Virus record (IMG/VR): IMGVR_UViG_2877245776_000006
Length of the DNA stretch: 64,000 nucleotides
Origin: a virus
Lineage: Duplodnaviria; Heunggongvirae; Uroviricota; Caudoviricetes
Strand: one strand, 5' to 3'
Part shown: piece after piece, positions 1-6,000 of the stretch
Layout of the letters: each line of letters begins with the position of its first letter
Position numbering within the stretch: the stretch's first letter is position 1
Program-made: the position numbers

Positions 1-3000
1 TGCCATGAATCGAAGGTCAGTCGTACCGACTGGCGATACATTGCGGCGATTTTATGTGCGTTCCAGATGGCATCTGATATCAGTCCGATCAGCCGGGCGT
101 TCAACCATGCCATTAACGTTCATGCAAATAAAAAACGTCCGGTTGGGGCCGGACGTTCTGAGCAAATCCTGATGAATATTTGATATTCAGGCAGGGCATG
201 GAGCAATACACGGGAATAATTCTGCCACATCTGGAAGAATTTCGCCAGCAACAACACCAACCGCAGCAGCCTGAAGCCGATTGGGTTAACCCGGAGATAC
301 CGGGACCGTCTGTGAAGATGTGCAGTCACACCAATGTGCAGTCACACCAACCGCAGCAGCCTGAAGCCGATTGGGTTAACCCAGGAGATACCGGGACCGT
401 CTGCGGTATGGAGTAAATCTTGTATGCGAGGGGACTATGCGTAATTACGCAACAATTTCACCTCAGTTCTGGTTAGGCGATACAGGGCGAAAACTAAGGA
501 AGTCTGGTCCGGAATGTATGGTAGTGGCGTTGTATATGATGACCTCGCCTCATTCCAATATGCTGGGCCTTTATTACCTGCCTGTTTTGTACATTGCTCA
601 CGAAACCGGACTTGATCCTGAAGGGGCTTCTAAGGGGCTTCAAATGGCTTGCGAGGCTGGTTTTTGCAGCTATGACCATGATTCTGAGGTTGTATGGGTG
701 CATGAAATGGCAGCATGGCAGGTTGGTGAAGCGCTGAAACCAGGCGATAACCGTTGTGCTGGGGTAAGAAATGAATATTCCGCGTTGCTGGAAAATCCTT
801 TTTTATCATCCTTTTATGATAGATATAAGGATGATTTCCACCTGGATGTCAGACGTGAATCATGTCGGAAAATTGAAGCCCCTTCAGAGCCCCTTTCAAG
901 CCAAGAACAAGAACAGGAACAGGAACAGGAACAGGAAAGAGATAAAACCCTTCTGGTCCATGGCGAAAAAATCGCCACGGACCCACTGGTGGATTCTTGT
1001 CCCGTTCTGACTGAACGTCCAGGACCAGCTGGCATGACACCGGAAGCAGATTCCGGGCGTTGTGTGCAGCAGGTGCTGCACGTCGAACCGGAGCAACAAC
1101 ACCAACCGCAGCAGCCTGAAGCCGATTCCGCGATGAGCGGGAAGCCGATTGGGTTAACCCGGGCGATGCCGGGACCGTCTGCGGGACGAGTTGATTATCC
1201 TGACGTGTTCGAACGGGTCTGGCGTGAATATCCGCATCGGGCAGGGTCAAACCCGAAGAAATCCGCGTTCAATGCCTGGAGGGCCAGATTACGCGAAGGG
1301 GTGTCACCGGATGTCGTGCTGGATGGCGTGAGGCGTTACGCAAGATACCTGGAGGCTACCGGGAAAGTGGGAACTGAATTTGTTCAGCAGGCATCGACGT
1401 TTTTTGGCCCGAACAGGAATTTCGAAAATCCGTGGGCGCTGCCGAAGGCTGGCGCAGTCAGCCTGCGTTGCGTGAATCACATTTCTGAACCGGACACCGA
1501 AATTCCGCCGGGTTTCAGGGGGTAATCAGCCATGAAAAACATTTCGACAGGAGGGATTCTTGAACGGGTGCGCCGTCTGGTACCACCGCACGTTACAGCA
1601 CCGTTCCGGACGACCGACGAGTGGCTGGAATGGCAACTGGCTGAGGGCCGGAAGCGCAGCGAGGAAGTTAACCGCCAGAATCACCAGACGCGGGTTGAAA
1701 AAATCCTGAATCGTTCGGGCATCCAGCCGCTTCACAGGAAGTGCTCATTCGGGAACTACCGGGTGCAGAACGACGGTCAGCGCCATGCTCTGAGTCAGGC
1801 AAAATCCATCGCGGCAGAGCTGCATACCGGCTGCACGAATTTCGTGTTCAGCGGTAAACCTGGCACCGGGAAAAATCACCTTGCAGCAGCGATTGGTAAT
1901 CGGCTGATGGCGAAGGGGAGAAGCGTGATTATCGTCACCGTGTCCGATGTCATGAGTGTGTTGCATGACGGCTACGACAACGGCAAGTCTGGTGAGAAAT
2001 TTTTACAGGAGCTTTGTGGCGTTGACCTTCTGGTCCTGGATGAAATTGGCATGCAGCGGGATACGCGCAACGAGCAGGTCATACTGAACCAGATCGTCGA
2101 CCGCAGAACGGCATCACTGCGCAGTGTCGGGATGCTGACGAACCTGAATCACGCAGCGATGAGCACACTCCTCGGCGAGCGGGTGATGGACCGTATGACC
2201 ATGAACGGTGGTCGTTGGGTGAATTTTAACTGGGAGAGCTGGCGGTCAAACGTTGGGCGTCAGGGTATGTGAGAATTTTTGACGAGGTAAATTTTCGATG
2301 GAAACCGTATTGCATGCACTGAAAGCGATGGGTAAAGCCAATTCTGTTGAACTGGCGGCGCGGCTTGATATCAGCCGTGAAGAAGTTCTCAACGAACTGT
2401 GGGAACTCAAAAAAAATGGTGTTGTTGATAAAACGGGTCACACCTGGTTTCTGGCTGTCGAAGGTGAATCCGGGGTAACCGAAGGGCAGGCACTACAATC
2501 TGAAGCGCCGGATGTGGTAACCGAAGAGGTCGCTCCAAAAGTTAGCGCTGACATGATGATTGAGTTTATCGCTCAGGAGGGGGCTAAAACCTGTGAAGAA
2601 ATAGCGGGTAAGTTCGGAGTTACCACTCGTAAGGTTGCTTCCACTTTGGCGGTAGTAACAGCAACGGGGCGCCTGGTGCGCGTGTCTATCAAGGGAAAAT
2701 TCCGTTATAAAGTGCCTGACGTCGAAAACGGCGATTTGAGCGCGTCATCATCGCAGGATGAGAATATCACACACGAAGCAGAAAACAGCGCGTCAGGCGA
2801 CGAACTGAATCGCTTTCCGTTGATGTCAGAGGGCACGGCAAAGGCCTGTACAGATGAGTTTATCCGGGATGTTCCGTCGTTCACCGAAAAATATGCTGGT
2901 GCAGTGACCCTTCCACCTCTACGGGCCGCCAGTCGTGAACTTCGTCGCGCCAAAAAACAGGTCCAGAAGTGGGAGCGTGTCTGTGCTGCACTACGTGAGC

Positions 3001-6000
3001 TGAATAAACACCGGGAACTTGTCATGCAGATTACCGATTCATCCAGCAGTATTGCATCGGAAAAGTGATAACTGGAGAGCTTATGGCAAAAGTATTTACA
3101 CCCGAACAGCGGGAAGAACTGAAGGCACGTATTGTGGAGCTCGTGCGCCTGAATGGTCGGGGAACGTTCAGGCAACTGGCTACTGAAACCGGAGTCAGCA
3201 AGACAGCTGTCAGACGTTTGTCCAGAGAACTGGTTGTCAGTGGCGCTATATTCGACTCAGGTTATGGTTTATTCCCGTCTGATCAGGCGCGTAAGGACTG
3301 GCAAAATGCCCGCAAAAAACTCTCGAGAGCAAAGGCAAAGAAACCGGTTGTTATTGACCCTGGTCTTATCCGGGCATTACCTGATGGGGAAATCCGGCGC
3401 TACGACAGACGCTACAACATAATTTGTCGCGAGTGCCGTAACAGCGAAACGATGCAGCGTGTGCTGGCATTCTGGCGGGGGAGTGCAGAGGGATTGATGT
3501 TCTCCCCGTCGTGAATGACGGGGGCTTACGTGTTCAGAAAAGTGATTCATATAGAGGCTGAATCTGATCTTTTTTGTTCACGTCTGGCTGCCACCATTGC
3601 AGGCAGAGTGAAGGCGTAGACTAAAAACATTTCGGTAAAACTCAGGATCTGGCTTGCCTCAATTGGTGTGAAAACTTCATCTGTATGAACTGCTTTATTG
3701 GCATCAATTCGTACAATATGAGCCCATTCCTTCATCTGTTCAGTGATCAGCCCTTTTTTGTAAATCATCTGAATACGTTGCGACAGCGATTCTTTTCCTG
3801 CTTCATCGCCGAGCAGTTTTTTCGTGGAGATATCGAGGACTCTGCGACAAAGAATTACCACTGTGTCGTACCGCCTCCTCTGTAAATCCTCTTTTGCCTC
3901 AACAAAAGTACGGTCTGCAACCGGGGGCGTATATTCTGGTGCGGTAATTTTTTTGACCGCAGGATAGATCTTGCGGAAACGGTACTGGCTATTTCCTGAA
4001 ATCAGAATATCGAGGTCTTTTTTCTGGCTTTCCGCCATGGGGCCGTGATAGTGGTCTGATGGGATTTCAACAATAGCAACACCTCCTCGATGACAACTTC
4101 TGCATACAAAAGCGACGTTAAAAAGAGGTGTTTTTTCAATTTGTTTTTCGGCAAATGCCTCAATAACAGCTCGCTCTTTTAAACAGTGTGGGCATGTAAT
4201 GTCAAAGGAGACTAAACTCATGGATATTCCTCTCGAAATTAAAGAAATTAACGAAATCATTGAGGTTACTGATCGCCCCGAGTTTACCCTCATGCGTCGT
4301 TATGAAACAGGAACCGACGAACAAAAATACATCATGGTTGCAGCATTGGCTGTGATGGCGATAGAAAGGGAGCGGAGGGAAAAGGACGTAATGGTTATTC
4401 CGGCGAGAAATGATTCACCGGATTTGAGATGGCAGGATCCGGAGTGGGATGTGGCAATCCGGTGATTGATATTTCTCTGGGGTAAAGCGCCGCCAGAATG
4501 ACGGCGCGGTAGTGGAGAGTTAAACGAAGCGGATCTGGAGTTTTTTCCCTGTAGCACGGGCGAATTTTTTCAGTGTGGCAAATGATGGGCCGCTTATACC
4601 TGATGCAAGATTGCTTTCCATTCTGGTGATCGCAGTCGCTTTTGTTCCCATACGTTCAGCAACTTCAGCCTGGGTTAAGCCTGCTTCTTTTCGTGCTGCC
4701 AGCATTTCATCAAGTAGTGCGAATTCGTCGGCGATGGCGTCGTATTCTGCTTTGAAAGCCGGATCCTCCATCCATTTGGCTGCCATTTCGTCGTGTGTCA
4801 TGGTAGGTGTAATGCGTTTACCAGTCATGCTTAACCTCCTTCATTCTGGCTTCAGCTTTTTTGCGTTCGGCTGGCGGTGTTTTCTGCGTTTTCTTAATGA
4901 AACTATGCAGCATAATGATGCGTTTCCCTGTCAGAGTGCAGTAAAAAACACGTGCAATCCCATCGTTGCCTTTAATTCTGAGTTCGAAAAGCCCATCACC
5001 AAAGGCGCTGGTATGAGGTTCTCCGAGATTGCTGCCGTATACCTTCATACGTTCAATGAGATGTTTGTATCGGACACGCATACTCAATGGAAGCTGATCG
5101 ACTTCCAGCCGGACCTCTTCACTGTAGTATTCGATAGTGTAGTTCATAGGTATCAACATAACAAATTTGTTATATGTATTCAAGGACTGTACTGTGTTGA
5201 CGACAACACATATCAAGCAGACAGTCATGCTGTTAGATCACGGTTTGCTTGATGGAAGGTTGACAACTCATAAGAAATTAAATTTATTAATAAGACTCAT
5301 TAAATTTTATGTTAGATTTGCAAGATGACAGGAAACAAAATATTAGGAGCAATAAAAAAAACAGGAGCAGCATTAATGTTTATTATTCTGCTGATCTTTG
5401 TAAAGATAATTGCAACTGAGTTCGGTGATAATAAAATTGATGATATTTTATCAAACAAAGAAGATGCAGATAAAATTGCCTCATACTTAAAAAATGAACT
5501 ATCCAAGAAAAAATTCCCTATTAAAGTAGATGATTATACTACATGGATTGCTGCAACCGTAGAAGGAAATACACTTAATCATTACTATAATATTTATGGG
5601 ATTAATGAAGATATGTCGCCATTTTTTGATGGTGAAGAGATTAAAAACTTAATGAGCCTAGAAATACAAAAAAAATTAAATTCTGTCGAGTGTAAAATGA
5701 TGCAGGAGTATAATTATACATTCAAATATCATTATAACATAATAAACACGAAATATAATGACTTAGTTATAATTATGACAAAGAGTAATTGTCCACAATG
5801 AAGGGGATGCATATGGATAACTCAAAACTGAAGAAAATGCTTATTGCATCTATTATCGGAAACATACTTTTAGTTTTTTTAAATATTCAAGTGTTCAACC
5901 AAAAACACTCCTCAAACGTCATAGACACACAAAAAAAAGAGGATAAAAGTAAGTGGACTGATATAGAAAACATTTATCCTGTGTGTAAGGTTCACAATAA

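Follow-up and report, generated by a model that had tools for sequence, protein, structure and literature searches.

In phage lambda, the N-terminus of the O protein recognises the origin of replication, whereas its C-terminus contacts the helicase loader P. In organizers of the SPP1 G38P type the origin lies inside the organizer gene. Ori-lambda is located inside the O gene, and the number of its iterons varies among relatives (PMC7466680). Among the phages that carry Shiga toxin genes (Stx phages), a replication unit named Eru4 has been described, with Shigella phage 75/02 as its representative (Fagerlund et al. 2022, PMC8951638); no known function was given there for the first protein, and the second was listed as a putative helicase (PMC8951638). 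The functions of the ydaUVW genes are still given as undetermined (PMC11014345), and the literature that we searched on Rac oriJ and ydaUVW neither placed an origin nor assigned functions. We analysed here two related gene blocks (modules 1 and 2) located in a 64,000-nucleotide stretch of viral DNA (Caudoviricetes; IMG/VR record IMGVR_UViG_2877245776_000006), referred to below as the window. Each block starts with a gene for a predicted replication initiator, followed by a gene for a DnaC-family loader, and the two belong to two different lambdoid-type prophages lying close together in the chromosome of one Shiga-toxin-producing Shigella sonnei. Module 1 is the Eru4 sequence itself, being 100% identical to the DNA of phage 75/02 (KF766125.2 / NC_029120, positions 9831-13830). 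Whereas Eru4 was described in terms of an unassigned protein and a putative helicase, we read it as a DnaC-family loader preceded by a putative winged-helix initiator whose gene would contain the origin. In module 2, the loader and the C-domain are of the same type but the initiator front is different. The pattern of the two modules is classical for lambdoid phages, although their gene family is unrelated to lambda O. Novelty here extends no further than to candidate sites for the origin and roles for the domains of a replication type that was already catalogued.

The two co-linear blocks are both on the + strand, with a start-to-start distance of about 56.1 kb. The genes of the first are at 437-1525, 1532-2272, 2298-3068 and 3065-3514 (the last from ATG 3083), and those of the second at 56547-57617, 57624-58370, 58374-59117 and 59118-59555 (the first, third and fourth from ATG 56553, 58392 and 59133, respectively). 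The first-pass annotation had reported this arrangement, which is real and correctly located, as is its placement in prophage DNA. A pairwise comparison of the DNA by BLASTN established that the similarity of the blocks is real. Block A (1044-2410 versus 57139-58504, +) shows 80.3% identity over 1374 bp and runs from the linker and C-domain of the initiator through the entire DnaC-like gene into the beginning of the DUF1627 gene; block B (2934-3473 versus 58983-59523, +) shows 76.9% identity over 542 bp. In a global alignment, identity between the modules was at background before position ~920 (24-42 matches per 100 columns), intermediate from ~920 to 1090 and 73-90% from ~1093 to 2290; past ~2290 it dropped in the middle of the DUF1627 gene and then rose again. 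The DNA similarity begins inside the initiator gene, just 3' of the purine/A-rich runs that are described below. At the protein level, the DnaC-like loaders are 81.7% identical over their full length, as high a similarity as had been announced, and the DUF1627 and DUF977 pairs 43.5% and 68.4% identical. The initiators are 60% identical by BLASTP between residues 153-362 and 142-356. Their folded C-domains, which had been called near-identical, are about 80% identical, so that the earlier wording was too strong. No BLASTP match was found between the first ~150 residues of the two proteins, and HHalign comparison of the two N-domain families, with profiles of 92 and 50 and then of 147 and 50 sequences, gave E = 0.3-0.6, with no homology detectable. 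The two N-terminal domains, which the first-pass annotation had called unrelated, thus show no detectable relationship.

The initiator of module 1 (437-1525, +; 362 residues) is predicted to consist of an N-terminal winged-helix domain, a disordered linker, a helical C-domain and a DnaT-like tail. An AlphaFold2 model obtained with a 64-sequence alignment placed the N-domain at residues 6-144, with a pLDDT of about 90, the disordered linker at residues 145-251 and the helical C-domain at residues 252-339. The initiator of module 2 (56553-57617, +; 354 residues from ATG 56553) carries a different N-domain; its linker, C-domain and tail are common with those of module 1. The GTG codon at 56547 was rejected as its start, as an exact-protein look-up from this codon gave no match; ATG 56553 is the real start. 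Both proteins end in …ISEPDTEIPPGFRG (1484-1525 and 57576-57617), and their last ~22-24 residues align with the extreme C-terminus of E. coli DnaT (PDB 6aep and 2ru8). At every locus seen with an initiator carrying this DnaT-like tail, a DnaC-type gene comes next, as in the E. coli dnaT-dnaC pair. The common tail (…EPDxEIPPGFRG) may be a docking peptide for loaders of the DnaC type; if so, half of this phage module would be connected with the dnaT-dnaC operon of E. coli.

Short repeats, which we consider candidate iterons, are present in two clusters in the N-terminal half of each initiator gene. In module 1, cluster 1 (620-641, +) contains GAAGGGGCTTC and TAAGGGGCTTC with an 11-bp period, and cluster 2 (875-896, -) contains two inverted copies of the same motif, GAAGCCCCTTC and AGAGCCCCTTT. 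A purine/A-rich run of the type (CAAGAA/CAGGAA)n, with a purine fraction of 0.85, comes next (899-947, +) and is a candidate unwinding region. In module 2, the clusters consist of four GTCAC(G) copies (56681-56717, +) and five GTCACG copies (56941-56987, +), in both cases with a spacing of 10-11 bp; the candidate unwinding region is an A/purine-rich run of the type (GATACA/GATAAA)n (56990-57030, +), with an A+T fraction of 0.72 versus 0.45 for the whole gene. These motifs are concentrated almost entirely in the N-halves: four of the five AAGGGGCT sites of the window lie inside the N-half of initiator 1, as two pairs, and the N-half of initiator 2 contains five of the six GTCACG-N4-GTCAC sites. 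A predicted N-terminal DNA-binding domain, and candidate iterons within the initiator's own gene beside an A/T-rich tract, are also two of the features that define the lambda-O-like class of initiators.

The repeats could be followed in diverged homologues, for which we call the N-domains of modules 1 and 2 types N1 and N2. The N1 motif was found at the same gene position in two loci, L017 (E. coli) and L018, the latter being the locus of a protein that NCBI names from Klebsiella and whose N-domain shows 73% amino acid identity. The N2 motif is present in an O157 locus (L020) with two extra copies, cluster 1 there consisting of six copies. In a third type of N-domain, N3 (locus L019), the equivalent positions are occupied by repeats particular to it, AAGGCTTC/AAGCCTTC, followed by (CAGGAA)n. 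In these homologues the N-domain repeats are invariant and keep a 10-12-bp helical phasing, while the spacers vary. Cluster 2, inverted in module 1, is in direct orientation at the same position in L017 and L018; the inversion changes the peptide from EGASKGL to EAPSEPL, with the DNA motif retained. Conservation of the DNA motif despite the change of the peptide argues for selection acting on the DNA. Two relatives outside the window are length variants: in P0039 the part that separates the two iteron clusters, and hence most of the N-domain, is gone, and in P0128 the part that separates two PEADS repeats of the linker. Both resemble deletions between repeats.

The halves of the initiator occur in other combinations elsewhere. 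Among the relatives retrieved, N1 is joined to the shared C-domain in 101 proteins, N2 to the shared C-domain in 36 and to a DnaT-like C-domain (PF17948) in 49, and N3 to the shared C-domain in one. Four proteins (P0008, P0009, P0010 and P0012) combine an N1-type front, ~78-82% identical to that of module 1, with a C-domain 100% identical to that of module 2, and in another chimera an N2 domain with 85% identity is joined to an unrelated C-domain and loader. When L017 was compared with module 2, identity leapt from ~35% to 95-98% at nucleotides ~500-525 of the gene, directly 3' of the purine run. The N1 domain family comprises 3928 representative clusters at E ≤ 0.001; the 148 best representatives have many different C-termini, and the signature 'E[GA][AP]SK[GP]L…SQEQEQ' is present in all of them. 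The loader gene appears to go with the C-domain. After the shared C-domain with its GFRG tail comes a DnaC-type gene in S. sonnei, in prophages of those E. coli that make Shiga toxin (STEC), in L018 and in L019, and indeed in every locus examined where an initiator with the shared C-domain has a loader. The N2 initiator of the O157 locus with its DnaT-like C-domain is followed by a loader of the lambda P type, not of the DnaC type. This distribution supports the view that the N-domain, its iterons and the A-rich run would form one exchangeable cassette, and the C-domain and the loader another. The swap of N-terminal domains postulated by the first-pass annotation is thus borne out by the position of the junction and by reciprocal combinations in other genomes. 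Since each type of N-domain comes with its own repeats, the cassette pattern also supports the proposal that the two modules differ in origin specificity, the sequence comparison suggesting, rather than demonstrating, that the repeats function as origins.

We consider it quite probable that both modules encode a bipartite initiator with an internal origin, together with a DnaC-family loader, and that they are assembled from shuffled cassettes. From the gene order, the pattern of similarity, the conservation of the repeats and the natural chimeras, we infer how DNA binding, origin firing and loader recruitment would take place. The N-terminal (winged-)helix domain would recognise iterons inside its own coding sequence, arranged in two clusters ~250 bp apart, and the purine/A-rich stretch after the second cluster would melt. 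A disordered linker of ~100 residues would connect the N-domain to the conserved helical C-domain and its DnaT-like tail, which would recruit the cognate DnaC-type loader and, thereby, the DnaB helicase of the host. The N-domain, the iterons and the A-rich run would move jointly as an origin-specificity cassette, and the C-domain and the loader as a host-recruitment cassette. Recombination just 3' of the A-rich run would have reshuffled these cassettes many times in enterobacterial prophages, so that the two modules would have the second cassette in common (~80% identical) and differ in the first. An Stx phage and a resident cryptic prophage thus show the mosaicism that is ordinary among lambdoid phages, and no new kind of system.

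Several observations weigh against this proposal. The match between C-domain and loader is a co-variation seen at a handful of loci. The AlphaFold2 model of the module 2 N-domain is less confident than that of module 1, reaching moderate values, and Foldseek searches of the PDB with both initiator models returned non-significant matches to winged helix-turn-helix or helix-turn-helix (HTH) proteins. Neither initiator gave an above-threshold match in Pfam, including with the domains searched separately at E up to 10, and no homology to lambda O was found in either of them by the same searches. The A-rich runs are more purine-rich than strongly AT-rich (A+T fraction 0.60 for module 1, 0.72 for module 2). 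Being part of a coding region, the repeats are linked to the N-domain automatically, and their conservation could be due in part to constraints on the protein. Binding of the initiator to the repeats and their activity as origins are put forward here as predictions from sequence. Finally, there are other candidates for the functional sites, namely GAAGCCGAT in the common linker and 90-bp repeats 5' of module 1.

These last elements lead to an alternative in which the repeats of the N-region are by-products of peptide repeats and the origin lies elsewhere, so that the two modules could share their origin specificity. GAAGCCGAT occurs two to four times in the common linker of both modules, L017 and L019. 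Upstream of the module 1 initiator, two tandem copies of a ~70-bp segment are arranged with a 90-bp period (247-406, +) within a small open reading frame (198-416) matching phrog_2751. This segment duplicates the initiator linker (1092-1184) except for 23 bp that are lacking between two GAAGCCGATT repeats, so that the N-domain/origin cassette of module 1 is bracketed by direct repeats, identical at 36 of 36 bp (247-282 and 1092-1127). However, the linker repeats are lost in the natural length variant P0128, in which the rest of the protein is kept, and the upstream repeats are missing from module 2 and vary in copy number (one in L009, two in the other eight loci checked). The N-region repeats, on the other hand, keep their phasing and their sequence where the spacers change, have preserved their DNA motif through the inversion of one cluster, and directly adjoin an A/purine-rich run, as in ori-lambda. 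We therefore regard an origin outside the N-region as improbable. It could also be supposed that no swap took place and that the N-halves are orthologous, having merely diverged much faster than the remainder of the gene. That both N-domains are HTH-like and ~135-150 residues long, with two repeat clusters at equivalent positions in both genes, would be compatible with a very old common ancestor. Against this, identity passes from background to ~80% within roughly 170 bp, HHalign revealed no relationship even with the 147-sequence profile, and natural chimeras unite N1 (~78%) with the C-domain of module 2 (100%), or N2 (85%) with an unrelated C-domain and loader. Such rapid divergence is very unlikely.

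The common gene order and orientation of the modules could further suggest that module 2 is a duplicate of module 1 made within the chromosome. This candidate was rejected, its probability being close to nil: the modules differ by 20% at the DNA level, and each has far closer relatives elsewhere. Besides its identity to phage 75/02, module 1 is 99.3% identical to phage POCJ13 and 99% identical to STEC prophages, and its exact initiator protein is present on the S. sonnei 75/02 chromosome (CP019689, PMC5447701) and in Stx1 prophages of STEC. The exact module 2 initiator sequence is found in S. sonnei strains with an intact ynfG and without the Stx phage, such as 53G (HE616528). The two modules therefore derive from two independent prophage acquisitions, and the term paralogs applied by the first-pass annotation holds in the loose sense of related blocks, not in that of a duplication. 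The same annotation saw in the modules substrates for homologous recombination, by which the prophages could exchange or delete the DNA between them. This is plausible in principle. The repeats (~1.4 kb and ~0.5 kb) are direct, so that a crossover would delete ~56 kb including stx1. Rare exchange during lytic growth is credible, given that genes for RecT/Bet, an exonuclease, Gam and a RecE-like protein are present in the Stx prophage; recombinases of the RecT/Bet type do recombine diverged DNA of phages and defective prophages, at about 1e-6, lambda x Rac recombinants having been obtained at ~2e-6 with 88% identity and a longest exact run of 49 bp (PMC3945230). Chimeras with their junction in the initiator gene also exist at the population level. 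However, the modules are ~80% identical and their longest exact runs are of 32, 26, 24, 23 and 23 bp. For minimal efficient pairing segments of 31-34 bp with RecA and 23-27 bp with Red-beta (De Paepe et al., PMC3945230), one run reaches the RecA length and all five the Red-beta range. No protein combining the module 1 N allele with the module 2 C allele was found among the best 120 relatives of each initiator, a screen that did not extend to the DnaC-like genes. Moreover, two IS1 copies flanking module 2 (left, 52970-53723, +; right, 63247-64000, +, cut by the end of the window) are direct repeats of 754 bp with 100% identity, and are much better recombination substrates than the modules. That the two blocks are live substrates in this strain, deleting 56 kb with stx1 or exchanging segments at a meaningful rate, thus seems unlikely to us. 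With similar reserve, we mention that the resident cryptic module might not be inert: on induction, it might cross-complement the loader or C-domain of the phage, or donate segments to it, so that Stx phages would arise whose origin cassette or loader allele is new. This could occur because the C-domain/loader cassettes are ~80% identical and the phage encodes recombinases of the RecT/Bet type, and would alter the control of replication and hence toxin output, but we judge it doubtful.

Shuffled cassettes with an internal origin, the arrangement that we favour, can be compared with known systems at several points. The modules resemble lambda O/P, including the O proteins of the Stx phages 933W and P27, in having a bipartite initiator with the loader gene directly 3', candidate iterons and an A-rich tract placed within the initiator gene where its two domains meet, an iteron number that varies among relatives and alters the length of the protein, and N and C halves that reassort among lambdoid phages. 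They differ by the lack of detectable sequence homology of either initiator to lambda O, by a loader of the DnaC/IstB AAA+ type instead of lambda P, and by candidate iterons, known here as sequence elements, that lie in two clusters ~250 bp apart and not in one array as in ori-lambda. With the SPP1 G38P-type organizer and its loader, they have in common the idea of an origin within the organizer gene. The Rac/Qin ydaU-ydaV-ydaW region of E. coli has the same gene order as module 2 (repressor, cro-like gene, YdaT, initiator, DnaC-like YdaV, DUF1627 and DUF977), and in S. sonnei module 2 has a Qin-like position beside dicB and ydfE. It differs from the Rac record deposited (H57) in being ~75% identical in DNA over ydaV, and from Rac/Qin in general in being part of a remnant with an IS1 on each side and a restriction-modification pair.

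Membership of the initiators in known families was also considered. The lambda O, DnaT and DnaD families were rejected, as Pfam and NCBIfam gave no match above threshold and the profile search of the PDB led to the DnaT tail only. The DnaT equivalog NF002770 scored 16-18 bits against a cut-off of 201 and aligned over model residues 156-179 only; resemblance to DnaT is thus a matter of the tail and of the DnaC-type gene that comes next, and 'primosomal protein I', as the phage gene is labelled in GenBank, claims too much because the match is confined to this tail. The module 2 N-domain aligned from end to end (profile positions 1-119 of 121) with the N-domain of phage replisome organizers, Phage_rep_org_N (PF09681 / TIGR01714), at E = 0.01 and 16.3 bits, below the cut-off of 23.3 bits, whereas the module 1 N-domain did not match this profile. 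NCBI names the module 2 initiator 'phage replisome organizer'. In PHROGs, the families to which the initiators were assigned are 1701, labelled 'DnaD-like helicase loader', and 3729, labelled 'replication initiation protein'.

Profile matches identified the product of the second gene, in both modules, as an AAA+ loader of the DnaC/IstB family. The loader of module 1 (1532-2272, +; 246 residues) matches PRK12377, Pfam IstB_IS21 and PHROG 50 ('DnaC-like helicase loader'), and that of module 2 (57624-58370, +; 248 residues) matches IstB_IS21 with 69.9 bits, the two loaders scoring 68-70 bits for a cut-off of 24.1. The loader reached 493.9 bits with NCBIfam PRK12377, a curated DnaC-like subfamily (cut-off 389), and 325.6 bits with the DnaC equivalog, slightly under the cut-off of 357. 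The Walker motifs GK(P/T)GTGKNHLA and LLVLDEIG are intact in both proteins. In the closest E. coli prophage (L001 21526-22266, E. coli 2012C-4502), the annotation lists the DnaC-like gene as a pseudogene that contains an internal stop; the copy of the window at 1532-2272 is intact.

A replication-related assignment could be given to two of the four genes of each module, the initiator and the DnaC-family loader. The third gene encodes an HTH-like DUF1627 protein (PF07789), of 256 residues in module 1 (2298-3068, +; 150 bits) and of 241 residues in module 2 (58392-59117, +, from ATG 58392; 309.8 bits). The fourth encodes a DUF977 protein (PF06163), of 143 residues in module 1 (3083-3514, +, from ATG 3083, the mechanical open reading frame beginning at 3065; PHROG 142) and of 140 residues in module 2 (59133-59555, +, from ATG 59133). 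The two DUF977 proteins scored 99 and 106 bits with PF06163, above the cut-off, as did the DUF1627 proteins with PF07789, and the PHROGs label of this family is 'Ren-like exclusion protein'. DUF1627 and DUF977 are syntenic and HTH-like in the modules, have no replication-related homology, and one or both are absent from several related loci. The 'four-gene replication module' of the first-pass annotation is therefore too strong a term.

In Stx phages, replication drives the production of toxin, and the widespread Eru4 type has module 1 as its type example. Reading this unit as an initiator with an internal origin and a DnaC-type loader provides concrete candidate sites, and a reason to score the origin cassette and the loader cassette separately when Stx phages are typed. 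As to genome stability, the message is a modest one: rearrangement near the stx1 prophage of this strain is likely to be driven by the identical IS1 copies, and not by the diverged modules.

Phage 75/02, the source of module 1, is an inducible Stx1-converting phage inserted in ynfG, and the insertion site is the same in related E. coli. Between the modules, stx1A is at 11076-12032 and stx1B at 12042-12311. 3' of the right end of the Stx prophage are found, in order, a ynfF fragment, the left IS1, which interrupts ynfF and forms the left boundary of a cryptic remnant, and the remnant itself, bounded on the right by the second IS1. This older, resident Rac/Qin-like prophage remnant carries, on the left of module 2, a ParE/PaaA2 pair, a repressor (55184-55714) with a cro-like gene, and YdaT (56056-56481), and on its right a methyltransferase together with a BsuBI/PstI-type endonuclease. 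Genomes of S. sonnei vary in the number of IS1 copies and in a deletion around the remnant; on the left side, other S. sonnei genomes (L003-L008) have one or two IS1 copies and a Rha/ASH fragment.

The ParE/PaaA2 pair (54680-55164), beside the remnant repressor, is toxin-antitoxin-like, and a second such pair, consisting of a RelE/Gp49-type toxin and an HTH antitoxin (4520-5228), lies just 3' of module 1 in the Stx phage. The restriction-modification pair inside the remnant (60184-63095) encodes an N6_Mtase/Eco57I-type methyltransferase of 610 residues and a BsuBI/PstI-type endonuclease of 360 residues; locus L007 has a truncated methyltransferase and lacks the genes for DUF1627 and DUF977. 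Comparison of the window with itself by BLAST also revealed internal direct repeats of low identity (68-86%) at 28556-29395, and an inverted match of 69% between 7616-7918 and 50466-50164.

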